Shown here one piece after another: positions 1,336 to 34,791 of a DNA stretch of 39,237 nucleotides (within the stretch, counting starts at the first letter, position 1; each line of letters starts with the position of its first letter). The position numbers were made by a program, and so were the translations under genes. Source of the DNA: Patescibacteria group bacterium (GTDB lineage Bacteria; Patescibacteriota; Kazan-3B-28); assembly GCA_041649135.1 (NCBI GenBank), contig JBAZNQ010000002.1, forward strand, positions 1 through 39,237, written 5' to 3'. The notes under the pieces were generated by a model. It did no database searches. It had not been told where the DNA came from and saw only the letters and a program-made list of their open reading frames with translations.

Positions 1336-1405
1336 TGGTACGCCCGGAGGGATTCGAACCCCCGACCTGTCCGACCGAAGTGTCGGACCGCTCATCCTCT
1401 TGAAC
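1336..1405 (-). pseudogene. tRNA-Arg-derived pseudo-copy with replaced anticodon arm
   Basis: 1336-1368 is identical to 1427-1459 (33 bp). A D-arm-like GTTCAAGAGGATGAGC is present, the anticodon arm is replaced by GTCCGAC-ACTTCG-GTCGGAC, and the 5' acceptor strand is absent. Confidence 0.7.
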
Positions 1406-1426
1406 GACAACTTGATATTTACTTTT

Positions 1427-1503
1427 TGGTACGCCCGGAGGGATTCGAACCCCCGACCTCTTAGTCCGTAGCTAAGCGCTCTAATCCCCTGAGCTACGGG
1501 CGC
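1427..1503 (-). tRNA. tRNA-Arg(ACG)
   Basis: GCGCCCG acceptor, anticodon arm CTTAG-CTACGGA-CTAAG, GGTTCGAATCC, CCA end, 77 nt. Confidence 0.97.
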
Positions 1504-8958: not shown

Positions 8959-9501
8959 ATGGGAGCTAAAATTCCACAAGACGTTACTCGCGAAGATAAG
9001 CTGGTCGGCCCACTGACTCTGAAACAATTTCTCTACATTCTCGGCGCCGCCGGTATTGATTTTATTGTCTACCAATCCTACGCCTTGGGCTATCTTTACT
9101 TCCCCGAATTTCTCCTTCTTGCCGTCATTGTTACTCTCTTTTCTCTTGCCCTCGCTTTTATGAATGTGAACGGTCGCCCGTTCGGTGTTTTCTTGCTCAA
9201 TCTTTTACACTTTTCAACTACCGGCCACAACTTGGCGTGGTATAAAGAGCCGCGAGACGTAGTTGCCGCTATTAAAATCAAAGCTTCTGACCTCAAAGAT
9301 ACTAAAACCGAAATCCAAGAACGGCAATCAGGTAAACAAATCAAAATGCAGATCGAACAACTCGCCAGTGTCTTAGATACCGGTGGTACAATAGAACAGA
9401 ATAATACCTCTGTTACTGCTCCAATTAGCAACCTTAATGCTTCATCCGCTCCGACGATAGAAACCGAGGACGTCGAAGATGTTCTGGCAGACGTCGACTA
9501 A
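8959..9501 (+). CDS. prgI: PrgI family protein
   Basis: KIPQDVTREDKLVGPLTLKQF motif, two TM helices, GRPF motif, directly upstream of the VirB4 genes. Confidence 0.85.
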   Translation: MGAKIPQDVTREDKLVGPLTLKQFLYILGAAGIDFIVYQSYALGYLYFPEFLLLAVIVTLFSLALAFMNVNGRPFGVFLLNLLHFSTTGHNLAWYKEPRDVVAAIKIKASDLKDTKTEIQERQSGKQIKMQIEQLASVLDTGGTIEQNNTSVTAPISNLNASSAPTIETEDVEDVLADVD

Positions 9502-9560
9502 TTCTTCACCCTTTTCTCCCTTAATTCTTGATTCATTATTCATCATTCTTTTTTTCTCCT

Positions 9561-10241
9561 ATGTCCAACCGACCAAAACTTAAAAGCACTCAAAAACTTC
9601 TCCCCATCAAAGAGATCCGTGATGGGGTGATTACGCTTAAATCCGATGGCTATCGTACGATTTTGATGGTCAACGCTATTAACTTCAACCTCAAGTCCAC
9701 CGATGAACAGCAAGCCCTGTTAGAAAACTACCAAAATTTTCTTAATGGCTTAAGCTTCCCCATTCAAATTGTGATGCAGTCTCGTACCCTCGACCTCGAT
9801 GGCTACTTAACCGAACTCGGCACCGCCGCCACTGCCCAAACCAACGAGTTGCTCCGCACCCAAACCAACGAATACATCACCTTCGTTCGCGACTTGATCG
9901 GCGTCGCCAATATTATGAGCAAGACTTTCTATGTCGTTATTCCTTACGATGAATCGGCCGTGTCCGGCGGTGGTTTTCGTGGCCTGTTTGGCAAAAAGTC
10001 AGCCCCTACCTCCGGCCGAAAATTTGATGAGATCAAAGCCGAGTTGGATGAACGTACCGCATTAGTCAGCAACGGACTGGCTTCGTTAGGTTTAAACAAC
10101 GTTCAGCTCAATACTCAAGAGATGATCGAGCTGTTTTACACTACTTACAATCTTGATACTGCCCGTCGTCAAAAGCTCTTTTCTGTCAGTAATGTCGATG
10201 CCGCCATTATTCGTAATATCCATGATGCGGAGACCAAGTAA
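9561..10241 (+). CDS. VirB4/TraC N-terminal-like protein
   Basis: Contains INFNLKS..EQ..ENYQNFLNGLSFPIQIVMQSR, which resembles the VirB4/TraC N-terminal domain. The ATG at 9561 is preferred to the upstream TTG. The stop overlaps the next start (TAATG). Confidence 0.75.
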   Translation: MSNRPKLKSTQKLLPIKEIRDGVITLKSDGYRTILMVNAINFNLKSTDEQQALLENYQNFLNGLSFPIQIVMQSRTLDLDGYLTELGTAATAQTNELLRTQTNEYITFVRDLIGVANIMSKTFYVVIPYDESAVSGGGFRGLFGKKSAPTSGRKFDEIKAELDERTALVSNGLASLGLNNVQLNTQEMIELFYTTYNLDTARRQKLFSVSNVDAAIIRNIHDAETK

Positions 10242-12034
10242 TGAAACTCTTTGGTAAAAAGAAAACCCAGTCCACCGAAGAACAAGCCGCCAAAAAGGCG
10301 ATCGAAAATTTTGAATCCGGTCTAGTCTCTGTGCGCGATCTCATCGCCCCAGCCGCTATGGAGATCAAAAGCGACCGGCTAGTTCTCAACGGCAAGCTTG
10401 TCCGTAGCTTCTTTGTTTTAACCTACCCCCAATACGTCGAGACTAACTGGCTCTCTCCCCTCATCAATTACGACGTCAATTTAGATATTTCTATGCACAT
10501 CTACCCGATCGATAGTGCTAACATTATGCGCGTACTTCGTCGAAAGGTAGCCGAAATGGAATCTTCCTTGCGCATCAATGAAGAGAAGGGCGCCATCCGT
10601 GATCCCGAACTGGAAATTGCCTACCAAGACGCCGAGGAACTTCGTGATCGACTCCAACGTGGTGCTGAAAAGTTTTTTCACTATGCTCTCTATTTTACTA
10701 TCTACGCCAAAACCGAAGAGGAGTTTGACAAGATCACCGGCCATATCGAAACTGTGCTTGGTGGTCAGCTCATTTACACCAAACAAGCTCTCCTCCAAAT
10801 GGAACAAGCTTTTAATGCCTCCCTGCCAGTTGGATTAGACGAACTCAAAATCATCCGGAACATGACCACCTCCTCTCTCGCCACTACCTTCCCCTTCACT
10901 TCCGTCGACCTCACTACTGGACATGGTGTCCTCTACGGCATCAACCGCCATAACAATGGCCTGATCTTATTTGACCGATTCGAACTAGAGAACGCCAACA
11001 TGGTCGTCTTTGCCAAATCCGGTAGCGGCAAGTCTTATGCCGTCAAACTGGAGATCCTTCGGAGCATGATGTTCGGGACCGATGTCATCGTCATCGATCC
11101 GGAAAATGAATACCAGACCCTTGCCGAAGCCGTCGGAGGCAGCTATATCCCCATCTCTTTAAATAGTGATAAACGTATCAACCCATTCGATCTACCAAAT
11201 CTGGGCGACAATGCTGATGGTGAAAAAATTATCCGTGCTTCAGTCATTACTTTGATCGGTCTATTAAATCTCATGGTCGGGACGTTAAACCCCGAAGAAG
11301 AAGCCTTGATGGAAAAAGCCATCATGCAAACCTATGCCCTAAGAGACATCACCAGCGATACCAAAACCCACACCAAACCAGCCCCCACGATGCAGGATCT
11401 CCACAATGTTTTAACTAATATGACCGGAGCCGAAAGCCTCGCTCTGCGCTTAACCAAATACACTACTGGCACTTTCGCCGGCATCTTCAATCAGCCCACC
11501 AACTTTGAGCTCGACCGCGGGCTGATGGTCTTTTCCATCCGTGACCTCGAAGACGCTCTCCGTCCCATCGCCATGTATGTTGTTTTAAACTACATTTGGA
11601 ACAAGATCCGTTTCGACATCAAAAAGCGCATGCTCGTCATTGATGAAGCTTGGATTTTGATGCAGTACGAAGACTCTGCCAAATTCTTATATAGCATCGC
11701 CAAACGCGCCCGTAAGTACTACCTCGGGCTGACCACTATTACCCAAGATATCGAAGATTTCCTTGGTTCTAAATATGGCAAGGCTGTTGTCGCCAACTCC
11801 TCGCTTCAGTTGCTCTTCCGCCAATCTCCTGCCTCCATTGATATTGTGGCCGAGACTTTCAATCTTACTCAAGGCGAAAAATTCCTGCTCTTGGAATCCG
11901 AGGTTGGTGAAGGATTATTCTTCGCCGGTACTAACCACGCCGCTATCAAAGTGGTCGCTAGCTATATTGAAGACCAAATCGTGACTACCGATCCTAGCCA
12001 GCTAGCCGAATTACGTAAATTAACGGGGGGATAA
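10241..12034 (+). CDS. virB4: VirB4-like type IV secretion ATPase
   Basis: Walker A AKSGSGKS, VIDPENEY, INPFD, Walker B LVIDEAW, and RARKY...TITQD. 597 aa. Confidence 0.9.
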   Translation: MKLFGKKKTQSTEEQAAKKAIENFESGLVSVRDLIAPAAMEIKSDRLVLNGKLVRSFFVLTYPQYVETNWLSPLINYDVNLDISMHIYPIDSANIMRVLRRKVAEMESSLRINEEKGAIRDPELEIAYQDAEELRDRLQRGAEKFFHYALYFTIYAKTEEEFDKITGHIETVLGGQLIYTKQALLQMEQAFNASLPVGLDELKIIRNMTTSSLATTFPFTSVDLTTGHGVLYGINRHNNGLILFDRFELENANMVVFAKSGSGKSYAVKLEILRSMMFGTDVIVIDPENEYQTLAEAVGGSYIPISLNSDKRINPFDLPNLGDNADGEKIIRASVITLIGLLNLMVGTLNPEEEALMEKAIMQTYALRDITSDTKTHTKPAPTMQDLHNVLTNMTGAESLALRLTKYTTGTFAGIFNQPTNFELDRGLMVFSIRDLEDALRPIAMYVVLNYIWNKIRFDIKKRMLVIDEAWILMQYEDSAKFLYSIAKRARKYYLGLTTITQDIEDFLGSKYGKAVVANSSLQLLFRQSPASIDIVAETFNLTQGEKFLLLESEVGEGLFFAGTNHAAIKVVASYIEDQIVTTDPSQLAELRKLTGG

Positions 12035-15229: not shown

Positions 15230-15457
15230 GTCATTGCGAGAAGCACGCGACGAAGCAATCTTTTGTTCTTCGCGAAACCCTGCGTCGGTACGTCCACCGT
15301 AGCTTCTTGACCGTCGTAGCCTTGGCGAAGTCGGTTGACCAGAATCTTATAAATACTTTTTTCATCCCGCATCATTCCCGTCCGCCCAACTAGTCGAATA
15401 AACTCCAGCGGGAATCCATTTTCTACCCACCTTGTCATTCCCGCGTAGGCGGGAATC
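15230..15457. repeat. Cluster of GTCA-tagged palindromes plus a 30-bp palindromic element
   Basis: GTCATTGC..GCAATC (15230-15260), CTTGACCG..CGGT (15306-15335), ATCATTCCCG..CGGGAATC (15371-15416) and GTCATTCCCGCGTAGGCGGGAATC (15434-15457). Confidence 0.85.
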
Positions 15458-15573
15458 TATTTTCTAGCTATAATAAACCCAGAGGTGAAAAGAAGCGGAT
15501 ATCTTCCGTCCTTTTTGCTTACCCCCTCTATTCGTCGATTAGTCTATTTGTCTATAAGTCTACTAGTCCAACC

Positions 15574-16290: not shown

Positions 16291-16322
16291 AGAATAGAGA
16301 CAGCCACACCAGCCATCGCAGA

Positions 16323-16352
16323 TCCTCCGAAGCCTTGGCGAAGGAGGACAAG
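16323..16352. repeat. 30-bp palindromic mini-element
   Basis: TCCTCC-GAAGCCTTGGCGAA-GGAGGA-CAAG. A near-identical copy at 20890-20919 shares the upstream CATCGCAGA. Confidence 0.85.
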
Positions 16353-16960: not shown

Positions 16961-16981
16961 AGAACAATAAACATAAAAATG

Positions 16982-17094
16982 GATTCCCGCCTTCGCGGGA
17001 ATGACAGGTTAAAGATTCTGAGCAAGGAACGTCTGACGTTCTAAGCCAGAATGACGGGGAAAGATTGCTTCGTCACTACGCTCCTCGCAATGAC
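16982..17094 (-). repeat. Three tandem GTCA-tagged palindromes of different subtypes
   Basis: GATTCCC..GGGAATGAC (16982-17005), GATTCTG..CAGAATGAC (17014-17055) and GATTGC..GCAATGAC (17063-17094). Confidence 0.85.
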
Positions 17095-20847: not shown

Positions 20848-20889
20848 AGAAAATGCGCCAAAGGCGCCACCAAAACTCTTCATCGCAGA

Positions 20890-21000
20890 TCCTCCGTAGC
20901 CTCGGCGTAGGAGGACTACCCAAACCTATTTCTCTCTTCTCTCTTCTCTCTTCTCTCTTCTCTCTCCTCTCTATTCTCTACTCTCTAATCTTTCCCCTCT
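20890..21000. repeat. 30-bp palindrome followed by a polypyrimidine tract
   Basis: TCCTCC-GTAGCCTCGGCGTA-GGAGGA-CTAC (20890-20919), then CTCTCTT arrays (~20926-21000) ending at the ATG at 21001. Confidence 0.85.
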
Positions 21001-27639: not shown

Positions 27640-28170
27640 ATGTCCCGCACCATCATCGAAATCAAAGCCCGCACCAACCAGCCCGACAAGATTCGGGAGA
27701 CTTTAAAAAATCTTGGTGCCGACTTCAGAGGCATCGACCACCAAATTGATACCTACTTCAAAGTCACTTCTGGCCGCCTCAAGCTTCGTGAAGGCAACAT
27801 TGAAAATCATTTAATCTACTACCAGCGTCCCGACCAAGCTGGCCCAAAACAATCAGATGTCATCCTCCTCCCCACCGGGCCCAACTCACCCATTAAAGCC
27901 ATCCTCACCCAATCAATGGGTGTCTTGGCTGTCGTCGATAAACATCGCGAAATCTACTTCATCGACAATGTAAAATTCCACATCGACCAAGTTGTAAACC
28001 TTGGCTCATTTATGGAGATTGAAGCTATTACCAACAACGACGAGCTCACCCGCGACCAACTCCTCGCCCAATGCGAACACTACAAAAAACTCCTCGAAGT
28101 TACTGACTCCGACCTCCTCGAAAAATCCTATAGTGACATGGTTCTTTCCCAGTCCACCCCCATTGATTAG
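27640..28170 (+). CDS. CYTH domain / class IV adenylate cyclase-like protein
   Basis: EIKAR, HQIDTYF, RLKLREG, VVDKHREIY, FHIDQV..LGSFMEIEA and KSYSDM. Confidence 0.9.
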   Translation: MSRTIIEIKARTNQPDKIRETLKNLGADFRGIDHQIDTYFKVTSGRLKLREGNIENHLIYYQRPDQAGPKQSDVILLPTGPNSPIKAILTQSMGVLAVVDKHREIYFIDNVKFHIDQVVNLGSFMEIEAITNNDELTRDQLLAQCEHYKKLLEVTDSDLLEKSYSDMVLSQSTPID

Positions 28171-28178
28171 ATTGTCAT

Positions 28179-28268
28179 AGACCCTTCGTCTTGTCCACCA
28201 TAGCTCTCGACCTTCGTAGCCTTGGCGAAGTAGGTTTAGCGACGGTGGAAGCTTTAGCGAAGTAGGGG
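28179..28268. repeat. Three nested 30-bp palindromic elements
   Basis: Removing 28190-28249 restores a 30-mer identical to 31723-31752. Removing 28206-28235 restores the middle 30-mer. Confidence 0.85.
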
Positions 28269-28301
28269 TGAAGATTGGAATAAATTGGTTAGATTATCCT
28301 T

Positions 28302-29252
28302 ATGCCCGAGCTCCCCGAAGTCGAAACCGTCGTCCGCGGCCTCTCCCGACATATCGTCGGGCAAAAAATCAAAACCATCCACGTCCTCACCAAAACCAGC
28401 TTCTCTGGTCTACCAGTCCATAAGTCTATTGGTCTATTAGTCAAATCCGTTTCCCGCCGCGGCAAAGGCATTATCATCGAGCTTGCGAAGCCCGGCGTAG
28501 CTCGCAAGGGCGAAGACGGGTCGAACTCCTTATCTCTCCTCATTCATTTAAAAATGACCGGCCAGCTCATTTGGGTTCCCCCCATCCGCCGTCGCTCAAA
28601 GAGCTATGGCGGACATCAACGGCTTAACTTTGGTCATCCTACGGATGACTTCACAAATAGTATGCCGTCTCGACACACTCGGGTTTGGTTCGAATTAACC
28701 CCCAAAGGGGCCCCTTCGGGGCAAAGGCACACCAATTATTTGTACTTCAACGATATGCGCCGGTTTGGTTGGGTTAAACTCACCCCCACCGCCGAAATCT
28801 CCAAAGACAAATTCTTCTCCAAACTCGGATTAGAACCTTTCGACAAAAACTTCACCCCCGCTTTTTTATATACCGCCATTCAACATCGGCCAAAGAGCAA
28901 TATTAAAGCCATCATCCTAGACCAAACTCTAGTTACCGGCATCGGCAACATCTATTCTGATGAGGCCCTTTTTTATGCCGGCATAAAACCTACTCGACTA
29001 GGACGTTCTATTACCAAAGCCAACACCACTAAATTAGTTTCTGCCATCAAAAAGGTGCTAACAAAAGGCATCAAGTATTCTGGCACCAGCATTAATACTC
29101 ACCGCACCCCCGAAGGTTCGATGGGCCAAATGCAAAACTACCTCGCCGTTTACGACCGCAAGGGTCAACCCTGCCGCAAGTGTAAAACCCCAATCATCAA
29201 AATCCGCGTCGCTAGTCGCGGCACCCATTACTGTCCAAGTTGTCAGCTATAA
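28302..29252 (+). CDS. mutM: Formamidopyrimidine-DNA glycosylase with repeat-derived insertions
   Basis: MPELPEVET, RRGK, HLKMTGQL, NDMRRFG, LDQTLVTGIGNIYSDEALF and Zn finger CRKC...CPSCQ. Confidence 0.96.
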   Translation: MPELPEVETVVRGLSRHIVGQKIKTIHVLTKTSFSGLPVHKSIGLLVKSVSRRGKGIIIELAKPGVARKGEDGSNSLSLLIHLKMTGQLIWVPPIRRRSKSYGGHQRLNFGHPTDDFTNSMPSRHTRVWFELTPKGAPSGQRHTNYLYFNDMRRFGWVKLTPTAEISKDKFFSKLGLEPFDKNFTPAFLYTAIQHRPKSNIKAIILDQTLVTGIGNIYSDEALFYAGIKPTRLGRSITKANTTKLVSAIKKVLTKGIKYSGTSINTHRTPEGSMGQMQNYLAVYDRKGQPCRKCKTPIIKIRVASRGTHYCPSCQL

Positions 29253-31589: not shown

Positions 31590-31752
31590 CGTCCTTCTGG
31601 CTCTTGACCGTCGCAGCCTCGGCGTAGTCGGTTGCCCAGAATCTTATCGCTTATCTTCTATACGATTCTGGCGTCGCTTCACTCCCCAGAATGACATTTT
31701 GCCGCTTTGGTTAGATTGTCGCAGACCCTTCGTAGCTTTAGCGAAGTAGGGG
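31590..31752. repeat. Composite repeat cluster between dnaN and recF
   Basis: CGTCCTTCTGG..CCAGAATC (31590-31643) containing the 30-mer 31603-31632, an inverted GATTCTGG..CCAGAATGAC (31664-31695), and the 30-mer at 31723-31752. Confidence 0.85.
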
Positions 31753-31781
31753 CGAAGGTTGGTTAAATTGGTTAGATTTAA

Positions 31782-33070: not shown

Positions 33071-34444
33071 CTAATCCACCGCGTATAATTTGTTTTTAAT
33101 TTGGGTAATTTCTTGGTGAATAATGTCGTTTTTTAAGATTTCTTCCTTAATTTTATTGTAGTCATGCATGATGGTTGTATGGTCTCGTCCTCCTAGTTCT
33201 CCCCCGATCTGCTTATACGGCATCTCCACCTCTTCTCGCAATAGATAAACCAAGATCTGACGCGGGACAACGATCTCCCGTGTTCTCTGCCGACCGGTCA
33301 GATCTTCCTTTTTGATATTAAAATGAACGATCACGGCTCGGATAATCTCGCTTGGGCGGACTACCCGCTTCCCCGGAGCGGTCAAAATACCTCCCATCAG
33401 GTTTTTTACATCATCTAACTCGGGGGTGGCATTATTCAGCTCGGCAAAGGCAAAGATCCGCGTGAGTGCTCCCTCCAGCTCGCGGACGTTATTAGTGATG
33501 GATTTTGCCAGATATTCTAAGATATCTCTGGCCAGCTCCCGTTTTTGCCCTTCCAGCTTGGACTGCAAGATCGCCAACCTAGTTTCATAAGAGGGGGTTG
33601 AAATATCAGCGATCATCCCCCATTCAAATCTGGAACGCAATCGATCTTCTAGTTGTGGGATGGCCTTGGGCGGCCGGTCTGATGTCAGCACGATTTGCTT
33701 ACCGGCAGTATGGAGTGCGTTAAACGTATGGAAAAACTCCTCTTGGGTCTGCTCCTTGCCGGCAATAAACTGAACATCGTCAATTAATAAACAATCGACC
33801 TTCCGGTACTTATCCTTAAATTCTTTAGTTTTCTGTCCTCGAATTGCTTCGATCATTTCATTAGTAAATCGCTCGGAAGTAACATACACCACTTTGGCTT
33901 TAGGGATCGTCTTAACTGTTTCATTTCCGATCGCCTGCAGTAAGTGAGTTTTTCCCAACCCTACTCCCCCATAAATAAACAGCGGGTTGTAGTTCATCCC
34001 CGGATTCTTCGCTACTGCTTCTGCCGCCGCGTAGCACAACTTACTATTTTCTCCGACGACAAAACTTTCAAAAGTAAATTTAGGATTTAAGCCTTCCCGG
34101 ACTACGTTTTCTGGTTCAAACAATTTTTTGTCAGTCGCCTCTAATGTTGGCAAGATCATCTTGGTTGGTTCTGGCGCAACTGGTTTTTTGCTTCCCACCA
34201 CATACTGCACCATAATTACTCTACCCAAATGTTTCACTAAACATTTGTGCATCTCTTTCTGATACTTTTTTTGTAACCAACTCTTTGTAAAGTCGTTTGG
34301 TACTCGAATTGTTACTACTCCCTTTTGGGTATCAATAGTCTCGAGCGAGGTATTTTTAAACCAAGTTTGAAAATTGGCGGGACTCATTCCCACCTCAATT
34401 TCTCCCAAAACTGTTTGCCACAATTTTTCTTGGTCGGTTAACAT
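33071..34444 (-). CDS. dnaA: Chromosomal replication initiator DnaA
   Basis: FESFVVG, YNPLFIYGGVGLGKTHL, LLIDDVQF, QEEFFHTFN, SDRPPK, RLRSRFEWG, NVRELEGAL and GGRDHTTIMH. Confidence 0.98.
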   Translation of the reverse strand: MLTDQEKLWQTVLGEIEVGMSPANFQTWFKNTSLETIDTQKGVVTIRVPNDFTKSWLQKKYQKEMHKCLVKHLGRVIMVQYVVGSKKPVAPEPTKMILPTLEATDKKLFEPENVVREGLNPKFTFESFVVGENSKLCYAAAEAVAKNPGMNYNPLFIYGGVGLGKTHLLQAIGNETVKTIPKAKVVYVTSERFTNEMIEAIRGQKTKEFKDKYRKVDCLLIDDVQFIAGKEQTQEEFFHTFNALHTAGKQIVLTSDRPPKAIPQLEDRLRSRFEWGMIADISTPSYETRLAILQSKLEGQKRELARDILEYLAKSITNNVRELEGALTRIFAFAELNNATPELDDVKNLMGGILTAPGKRVVRPSEIIRAVIVHFNIKKEDLTGRQRTREIVVPRQILVYLLREEVEMPYKQIGGELGGRDHTTIMHDYNKIKEEILKNDIIHQEITQIKNKLYAVD

Positions 34445-34487
34445 GCTCCCCTGTTTTTAGCCTCCTAGCAAAGTCAATTTACCAAAG

Positions 34488-34496
34488 TTATCCACA
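34488..34496 (+). promoter_or_regulatory. Perfect DnaA box upstream of dnaA
   Basis: TTATCCACA 43 nt from the dnaA start, the usual position for autoregulation. Confidence 0.8.
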
Positions 34497-34591
34497 TTTG
34501 TATACGCGAGGGAGACCAGAGAGCAGGGAAGAAAAAATAGAGACTTCCTCTCCGCCCTCGTCTCTCTACCCTTGTCTCTACTCTCTATAAA

Positions 34592-34621
34592 TTGACCTAT
34601 GAGAGAGGGGCAGAATATACT
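34592..34621 (+). promoter_or_regulatory. Sigma70 promoter for the rpmH operon
   Basis: TTGACC-N18-TATACT, 25 nt upstream of the rpmH ATG. Confidence 0.6.
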
Positions 34622-34646
34622 GGGTAAGTACTGATTTAATTACCTT

Positions 34647-34781
34647 ATGAAAAGAACCTACCAACCCAACAAGCGCAAGCGCCAGAAAACTCATGGTTTC
34701 CTGTCTCGGATGGCGACTACTGGTGGCCAGAAAGTGGTGAAACGCCGCCGACTTAAGGGTCGCAAGAAGTTAAGCGTCTAG
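34647..34781 (+). CDS. rpmH: 50S ribosomal protein L34 (below the ORF-track size cutoff)
   Basis: Translates to [44 protein letters not shown]. Confidence 0.98.
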
Positions 34782-34791
34782 GAGCTTCGCT

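Follow-up and report, generated by a model that had tools for sequence, protein, structure and literature searches.

The nested repeats between the CYTH gene and fpg

The window, i.e. the whole stretch of 39,237 nucleotides that was analysed, belongs to a candidate division Kazan (CPR/Patescibacteria) bacterium and contains a CYTH-domain gene (27640-28170) and fpg (28302-29252), which are separated by a spacer of 131 nt. This spacer holds a set of nested repeats on its + strand, the letters of which read, in order, TAGACCCTTCGT, CTTGTCCACCATAGCT, CTCGACCTTCGTAGCCTTGGCGAAGTAGGT, TTAGCGACGGTGGA and AGCTTTAGCGAAGTAGGG. When the central 30 nt and subsequently the next 30 nt were taken out, each time another 30-nt sequence of the same design remained.

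The inner unit (28206-28235, + strand) is an uninterrupted sequence of 30 nt, which reads CTCG ACCTT CGTAGCCTTGGCGAAG TAGGT and thus carries the exact 16-nt core CGTAGCCTTGGCGAAG. It was recognised with 43.8 bits (E 3.5e-09) by R1, a covariance model built mostly from other phyla. On either side of it lie the two parts of the middle unit, positions 1-16 at 28190-28205 (+; CTTG TCCACC ATAGCT) and positions 17-30 at 28236-28249 (+). Rejoined, these give CTTGTCCACCATAGCTTTAGCGACGGTGGA, again with a length of 30 nt, and restore the contiguous 18-mer CCATAGCTTTAGCGACGG. The outer unit consists of 28178-28189 (+; positions 1-12, comprising the tag TAGA, the stem CCCTT and CGT) and 28250-28267 (+; positions 13-30). 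Without their inserts the outer and middle units scored 29.5 and 40.3 as hosts, with insertion points after position 12 and after position 16, respectively. No target base is duplicated at either junction, and the boundary between the outer and the middle unit cannot be shifted by one base.

The original prediction of three 30-bp elements inside one another, with exact rejoining and without target duplication, was borne out. The halves of the outer unit had been placed at 28179-28189 and 28250-28268, which rejoin to AGACCCTTCGTAGCTTTAGCGAAGTAGGGG and match the free copy at 31723-31752 in 30/30 positions; this match holds, and only the register needed correction, the family register (28178-28189 and 28250-28267) being one base further to the left. 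The sequence 28178-28267 is a stack of three 30-nt units, formed by two successive, precise insertions on the same strand without target duplication. A middle-type unit, possibly with the inner unit already aboard, went into the outer unit between its positions 12 and 13, and the inner unit into the tip loop of the middle unit between positions 16 and 17.

The stack is located in a 78-nt host module, which together with the 60-nt insert runs from 28158 to 28295 (+) and is also present at 31702-31778. Upon removal of the 60 nt, the match between the two sites spans the full 78 nt. The module has TTGRTTAGATT direct repeats at both ends (28158-28176 and 28279-28295), one of which is found directly 5' of the start codon of fpg. 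Within the module at 31702-31778, between dnaN and recF, the uninterrupted outer-type unit 31722-31751 (+, 36.1 bits with R1) represents a paralogous "empty" state.

Other copies in the window and its extension

R1 detected six free or inner copies on the + strand of the window (starting at 15306, 16319, 20886, 28206, 31603 and 31722) and two variants in fpg. The other free units, all on the + strand, are located at 15306-15335, 3' of a pilB-like ATPase gene (48.3 bits), at 16319-16348, with the tag CAGA (31.5 bits), at 20886-20915, in the intergenic space that separates tsaD from the femAB-like gene (29.2 bits), and at 31603-31632, between dnaN and recF and antisense to both (40.3 bits). Two of these, 15306-15335 and 31603-31632, had been listed correctly beforehand; the copy at 16319-16348 had been listed as 16323-16352, which on the - strand scores 13.9 bits, and that at 20886-20915 had been missed. 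Three of the window copies lie directly 3' of genes on the same strand, and 7 of the 8 are on the + strand, left of oriC. Every unit in the window shares a context of 43-78 nt with one other copy, so that the copies form pairs: 15306-15335 and 31603-31632 have approximately 55 nt in common, and 16319-16348 and 20886-20915 share their flanks.

An ENA contig overlaps the window by 11.8 kb with 100% identity and extends the sequence to window-equivalent 82.7 kb. No further copy of the unit was present in these next 44 kb, nor in the 48 kb right of oriC. The copies are clustered at 15.3-31.8 kb, which is 2.8-19 kb left of the dnaA-rnpA origin region. Given the lack of copies on the extension, the family is sparse and clustered in the Kazan genome.

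The likely replication origin region itself (34445-34791) is situated between the divergent genes dnaA (33071-34444, -) and rnpA (34792, +); the GC skew is negative to the left of it and climbs towards zero on the right. At 8959-12034, PrgI-like and TraG/VirB4-like P-loop genes are found beside a pilB-type ATPase gene, so that this CPR genome has a gene cluster here of the type IV secretion or competence-like kind.

Copies translated within fpg

In fpg, two variant copies form part of the translated reading frame. The one at 28487-28520 (+) has an 8-nt loop and a length of 34 nt, and encodes the peptide KPGVARKGEDG (R1 22.8 bits). The other, at 28585-28617 (-), is a middle-type variant of 33 nt with a 7-nt loop and the core CCATAGC...GCGACGG, and corresponds to the peptide IRRRSKSYGGH (22.6 bits). 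Both are located in Fpg loops that vary in length. The peptide KPGVARKGEDG is missing from the Fpg of L003, L004 and L058 and is present in that of L001 and L002; best-segment identity of the window Fpg to the Fpg of Kazan MAGs is 64-67%. The unit had been predicted to preserve the reading frame, and these copies agree with that: 30 nt correspond to 10 codons, and the unit consensus is open in 5 of the 6 reading frames.

Related Kazan/CPR Fpg proteins have other lineage-specific in-frame inserts, of approximately 42 aa in L004 (6300-6450) and of 23 aa in L001 (6600-6700). At least one of these fits the hairpin model (L004 6408-6439, 25.6 bits).

Filled and empty states

The filled and empty copies of the host module differ by exactly the 60 nt bounded by the unit ends. 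A third copy of the module, also empty, is carried by a contig of 25.9 kb in the source metagenome; it differs by 1 nt over the 57-nt module core, and its flanks are unlike. A joint skipping the 60 nt in three metagenomes was considered as an allelic empty site and was rejected, because it belongs to the 25.9-kb contig, whose unlike flanks identify it as a paralogous empty copy. A comparison of filled and empty sites between strains had been proposed in the original prediction. It yielded paralogous empty copies only: no allelic empty site was present in the contigs of the three metagenomes, and a look-up with the CYTH protein returned the same contig only.

In the source metagenome, the unitig covering 28178-28245 has twice the genome depth, and there must hence be another, nearly identical nested copy. 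Some of the spread in the Kazan genome, at the least, is therefore due to duplication of composites and not to insertion of single units. The nested state is common to related strains in three metagenomes (two besides the source), and present activity is thus unproven. With this shared state, the lack of an allelic empty site and the copy-free 44 kb, the description of the family as active could not be maintained; the insertions in the Kazan genome look old and show no sign of present activity.

Architecture of the 30-nt unit

The unit consists of an unpaired tag of 4 nt (consensus CTTG or CCTG, in detail C-[T/C]-[T/G]-G) and a hairpin of 26 nt. In the hairpin a freely covarying outer stem of 5-6 bp is followed by a conserved GNA/GNA internal loop and a GCY-TT-RGC tip, the latter forming a 3-bp tip stem; the outer stem has no A-T start and there is no conserved tail. 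In 121 aligned copies of the core CGTAGCCTTGGCGAAG the information content is near zero beyond a stretch of exactly 30 positions, from -9 to +20 relative to the core, and exactly 30 informative positions were again obtained with 123 copies of the core CCATAGCTTTAGCGACGG. Positions flanking the unit carry at most 0.18 bits. Both the discreteness of the 30-nt elements, of which conservation stops at the same length in two independent cross-phylum sets, and the tetranucleotide in front of the hairpin had been anticipated from the window.

At least 4 of the 5 outer-stem pairs are kept in 89% and 92% of the copies in the two core sets, versus 6.8% at random. Covariation in the outer stem amounted to 129 double-change cells versus 37.7 in shuffles, with none of 500 shuffles as high, and the signal collapsed when the register was slid. 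The folding energy of the strand with the consensus tag is more favourable than that of the complementary strand (-7.8 versus -5.9 kcal/mol). By energy the window units are weak hairpins (-3 to -5 kcal/mol as DNA, z -0.7 to -2.4); for these units folding energy is uninformative and covariation alone is informative.

Distribution across phyla

One genome per prokaryotic species was scanned for the exact 16-nt core CGTAGCCTTGGCGAAG and the exact 18-nt core CCATAGCTTTAGCGACGG. The 16-nt core was found at no fewer than 120 loci in many phyla. A chance origin of these matches (approximately 277 expected in 596 Gb) was considered and rejected, because 89% have the full architecture of tag plus stem, versus 6.8% expected. 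For the 18-nt core, at least 120 intact occurrences were found in other genomes, versus approximately 17 expected by chance. Since this core, restored by rejoining, defines a 30-nt unit elsewhere, the middle unit of the window is a genuine member of the family that has since been split.

Among the matches listed, hosts by record title include Verrucomicrobiota (with Akkermansia), Acidobacteriota, Planctomycetota, Bacteroidota and Pseudomonadota, as well as Dependentiae/TM6, Kiritimatiellia, Lentisphaerae and many CPR groups. In IMG/VR viral contigs, 71 of the 103 exact-core matches show the full architecture. The 30-nt family is not specific to the Kazan bacterium; its cores of 16-18 nt are identical across more than 10 phyla and viral contigs. 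No Rfam family matches the units and a literature search with unit sequence strings returned nothing relevant; the family is apparently undescribed so far.

Complete units are borne by approximately 70 viral or proviral contigs (IMG/VR loci L369-L469), with two in L387. Such contigs are a possible route of spread between phyla.

Insertion into hairpin loops

In 10.7% of the copies the flanks form a perfect stem of at least 6 bp around the unit, compared with 1.3% when flanks were mismatched, which indicates that the units tend to occupy the loops of other hairpins. Self-nesting was observed in 8 of 241 copies (0.5% in controls), with the host on the same strand in 7 of the 8. Insertion took place after position 12 (n=3), 17 (n=2), 19 (n=2) or 18 (n=1), and the two events in the window (after positions 12 and 16) agree with these cross-phylum insertion points. 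Exact 30-in-30 cases were also seen at L163 (5964-6023), L141, L265, L294 and L297. The units sit preferentially in hairpin loops, their own loops included, and the proposal that the element targets its own unpaired centre was thus supported outside the window.

The orientation of the units was unbiased with respect to local GC skew across phyla (59 versus 56), and targeting of the lagging strand is therefore without support. Units were also seen within short tandem repeats, e.g. in L195 and L199.

A small GIY-YIG nuclease gene next to the units

At L115/L201, a + copy upstream and an inverted (-) copy downstream, with the tags pointing outward, flank a gene for a single-domain GIY-YIG protein of 78 aa. 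Its only Pfam match is PF01541, and among solved structures the UPF0213 proteins 1zg2 and 1ywl (BH0048, EF2693) are closest to it. With a single-protein search 48 loci of homologues were collected, and R1 was run across them. It gave 33 hits within 200 nt of the gene and 5 farther off, a proximity enrichment of 31-fold by length and approximately 5-fold versus other non-coding DNA of the same loci (crude Fisher p ~5e-5); this enrichment derives partly from orthologous loci of related Cytophagales, so that the loci are not independent. Copies within 200 nt were present in 19 of the 48 loci, typically + upstream and - downstream, and these positive loci belong to Cytophagales, Chitinophagales, Sphingobacteriales, Saccharibacteria and Gastranaerophilaceae. 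The hairpin-adjacent homologues, among those translated, have FEKYLKSGSGxAFRNK as their C-terminal end. Extra cases were encountered among randomly sampled hairpin loci, L367 and L303 (TM6), and the hairpin by the gene of L209 has the same 18-nt core as the middle unit of the window. The L115/L201-type protein shares only 31% identity with the product of a gene in L046 that has flanking hairpins of the GTCATTGCGAG type.

For 51 ORFs adjoining random copies, one of which was the L115 gene for the GIY-YIG protein, the reported Pfam families comprised an IS1595 transposase (once) but not Y1_Tnp; the window contains no transposase. The small GIY-YIG nuclease is the only recurrent protein partner found. 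Neither the window nor the 44 kb beyond it (83 kb of Kazan genome) contains a GIY-YIG gene of the 78-aa type; the association was seen in other phyla. Most of the gene-flanking cassettes adjoin tRNA genes, which as hairpin-rich landing places may attract hairpins independently of the GIY-YIG gene.

The arrangement of hairpin, 78-aa GIY-YIG gene and inverted hairpin was seen directly 3' of an intact long-arm tRNA (Ser/Leu type) in L201-L209, L235, L237, L367 and L303 (e.g. L201, 1030-1520). Behind the cassette comes a duplicated tRNA fragment that starts inside the T-loop (TCGAATCC...), and no integrase is encoded within the cassette. The window itself has at 1345-1460 (-) a tRNA-Arg(ACG), then approximately 57 nt with the hairpin GGTCCGACACTTCGGTCGGACAG, and then a repeat of the last 31 nt of the tRNA (GTCGGGGGTTCGAATCCCTCCGGGCGTACCA). 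This looks like a gene-less version of the tRNA-side GIY-YIG cassettes of other phyla.

Comparison with known repeat systems

Ssn proteins are single-strand-specific GIY-YIG nucleases with NTS/SRM hairpin repeats (Chenal et al. 2025, Nat Commun 16:2388, PMC11893778). SsnA binds the NTS hairpin and cleaves ssDNA only, in one of the strands and immediately upstream of the palindrome; NTS also flank the ssnA gene (PMC11893778). The units resemble this system in being short (20-50 nt), strand-directional hairpins with an unpaired 5' tag and many dispersed copies across phyla, and in the inverted copies that bracket a stand-alone GIY-YIG gene of less than 100 aa in other genomes. However, the SRM motif HGTCWYN(0-2)YYVSBRHN(0-5)WNVSBRGN(0-2)RNCYNB matched none of 125 cross-phylum units, even with 8-nt flanks, and no unit in the window. 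The hairpin of the unit is longer and has the GNA/GNA internal loop, the tag is CTTG versus (T/C)GTC-AT in SRM, and the nearest solved relatives of the putative partner are UPF0213 proteins. Furthermore, no mobility, nesting or in-frame insertion of repeats is claimed for Ssn (PMC11893778).

The SRM motif does match two other hairpins in the window, 15433-15460 (+) and 16979-17006 (-), of the form TGTCATTCCCGCG-NAG-GCGGGAATCC, and one more classical SRM hairpin is situated at window-equivalent ~68004 (L475/L476). Hairpins of the NTS/SRM type occur alongside the 30-nt CTTG units and constitute a family of their own.

With REP/REPIN-RAYT systems the units share the tetranucleotide tag plus imperfect hairpin of 20-40 nt, the head-to-head doublets, the lack of target duplication, and a mostly intergenic location with a copy inside a gene now and then (PMC3733652). 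In contrast to REPs, including the GTAG-tagged families (Di Nocera et al. 2013, PMC3733652), their tag is C-[T/C]-[T/G]-G, and no RAYT association was seen in the Pfam families of the 51 adjoining ORFs. REP families are specific to a species or genus, whereas the core of the unit is identical across phyla, and self-nesting is present in the 30-nt units but is not a described REP feature. CGTC-tagged REPs, such as Neisseria dRS3 and Rickettsia RPE-4/RPE-6 (which have been equated with them), are defined by a CGTC/TGTC/CCTC tag, an 8-9-bp stem starting with two A-T pairs, a 4-5-nt loop and a CCA tail (Di Nocera et al. 2013, PMC3733652). The unit has instead an outer stem of 5-6 bp, an internal loop and a 3-bp tip stem, and lacks the A-T start and the conserved tail. 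It resembles the CGTC REPs as a cross-phylum tagged hairpin with no dedicated transposase known and with some copies within genes, and the TGTC variant of their tag occurs within CTTGTCC of the unit. The CGTC REPs are what the SRM motif captures, and these are separately present in the window. IS200/IS605-derived miniatures of the PATE-like kind have differing left and right subterminal hairpins, and their left end is preceded on the 5' side by a tetranucleotide target; in the unit there is only one hairpin, and its flanks carry almost no information.

In-frame palindromic inserts in housekeeping proteins, as in Fpg here, recall the Rickettsia palindromic elements (RPE). These are tolerated in frame in surface loops of housekeeping proteins, and the classical RPE-1 is approximately 100-150 bp long and confined to Rickettsia. 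Unlike RPE-1, the unit has 30-34 nt and occurs across phyla.

The Nostocaceae repeats SDR1-8 reportedly have 21-27 nt and a shared hairpin fold with compensatory changes (Elhai et al. 2008, Genome Res 18:1484, cited in PMC4390886). Reportedly they insert precisely, sometimes into their own copies, are found within tandem heptamer arrays, and were proposed to have an RNA intermediate. The likeness lies in nesting and hairpin covariation and is one of behaviour only. The sequences presumably differ, the unit has 30 nt and a cross-phylum distribution versus one cyanobacterial subgroup, and its candidate partner is a DNA nuclease.

Interpretation of the nested stack

We consider it probable, at roughly 0.6, that the stack consists of three members of a tagged-hairpin family that moves as single-stranded DNA into hairpin loops and has a GIY-YIG nuclease of approximately 78 aa (UPF0213/Ssn-like) as its partner. 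The unit would move, or be copied, as single-stranded DNA into hairpin loops that are themselves single-stranded. We infer a stand-alone nuclease of this kind as the protein partner because inverted units with outward tags bracket its gene in several phyla, as NTS bracket ssnA. The nuclease, if it acts like SsnA, would bind to the hairpin and make a nick in single-stranded DNA immediately to its 5' side, at or beside the tag; a nick at the tag would account for the sharp 5' boundary of the unit. Joining of the ends would require the replication or repair machinery of the host, and a hydrolytic GIY-YIG nuclease alone does not explain precise insertion without target duplication.

A link to IS200/IS605 or REP/RAYT was part of the original prediction, and a REP/REPIN-like element moved by an HUH tyrosine transposase (RAYT or IS200/IS605 TnpA), acting on a single-stranded tetranucleotide plus hairpin, would indeed fit the anatomy of the unit (4-nt tag, hairpin, no target duplication). 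Head-to-head doublets in some genomes (L173, L114, L171, L160), copies within genes, as reported for REPs (PMC3733652), and the copy 20886-20915, which starts with GTAG on the minus strand, are likewise in keeping with it. However, the consensus tag is CTTG or CCTG and not GTAG, Y1_Tnp is missing from the Pfam families of the 51 adjacent ORFs, the window is free of transposases, and the GIY-YIG nuclease gene is the only one found to be recurrently flanked. As the only recurrent partner, this nuclease points to a system of the Ssn/NTS kind rather than to HUH, and we regard an HUH-driven element as improbable; the suggested link is not supported.

It is also conceivable, though very improbable, that the units act or move as RNA, either as functional hairpins that would stabilise 3' ends, terminate transcription or bind proteins, or by spreading via reverse transcription of an RNA intermediate. 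The internal loop, which is of the tandem sheared G.A type, favours one strand by the folding energies given above, and three window copies directly 3' of same-strand genes would suit such a role. Yet there is no Rfam match and no T-run after the hairpins, and the studied member of the partner's DNA nuclease family leaves RNA alone (PMC11893778). Orientation with respect to transcription varies as well: 31603 and 31722 run antisense to dnaN-recF, and one of the two copies in fpg occupies its non-coding strand. A reading as terminators was ruled out by the missing T-run, the nested copies and the in-frame copies. Still less credible is the view that no 30-nt movement took place in the Kazan genome, and that larger composites were spread by duplication or gene conversion while palindromes grew by template switching. 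The paired contexts of 43-78 nt, the double depth of 28178-28245 with the second nested copy that it implies, and the clustering at 15.3-31.8 kb with the next 44 kb empty would be expected in that case. It leaves unexplained that the filled and empty modules differ by exactly 60 nt bounded by unit ends, that the interrupted middle core is contiguous as an 18-mer in more than 100 other genomes, and that unrelated phyla independently show the same 30-nt boundaries and the same sites of insertion, after position 12 or within the tip loop.

Implications

If the reading as single-stranded tagged hairpins with a GIY-YIG partner is true, one 30-nt sequence with sharp ends has spread through more than 10 bacterial phyla and viral contigs, enters hairpin loops precisely and adds 10-codon peptides to essential proteins. 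With a candidate enzyme of approximately 78 residues, the question of what moves tagged palindromes without a transposase (CGTC-type REPs, cyanobacterial SDRs) becomes one for the bench. It would extend the Ssn single-strand nucleases to a second nuclease/hairpin pair with a different specificity; such nucleases are of practical interest for cutting ssDNA at chosen sites. The units also explain odd low-complexity peptides (SLGEGG, SYGGQ, FAKATADK) and length variation in proteins predicted from metagenomes.

A broader version, in which the family is a pan-bacterial single-stranded DNA "hairpin transposon", mobilised in trans by the UPF0213-type GIY-YIG nuclease of approximately 78 aa, with targets chosen by structure (any single-stranded hairpin loop, for instance its own tip, other repeats or tRNA T-loops), is possible but rather doubtful. 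If true, it would rank among the smallest mobile DNAs known, forming a pair parallel to but distinct from Ssn/NTS and RAYT/REP, and it would account for stacks of the Russian-doll type, for GIY-YIG cassettes beside tRNA genes and for inserts of 10 codons in housekeeping proteins of various phyla.

Other arrangements of the units

In an Akkermansia sp. (L283, 46-127), middle-type units form a head-to-tail tandem array with a period of 32 nt, unlike the nesting and the inverted doublets. A non-coding stretch of 1.4 kb in a member of the Cyclobacteriaceae (L129, 1700-3100) contains at least 6 units. Three of these carry the same insert of approximately 33 nt (AAGTCC..., a second repeat family) in their centre, and such composites therefore seem to have been multiplied themselves.
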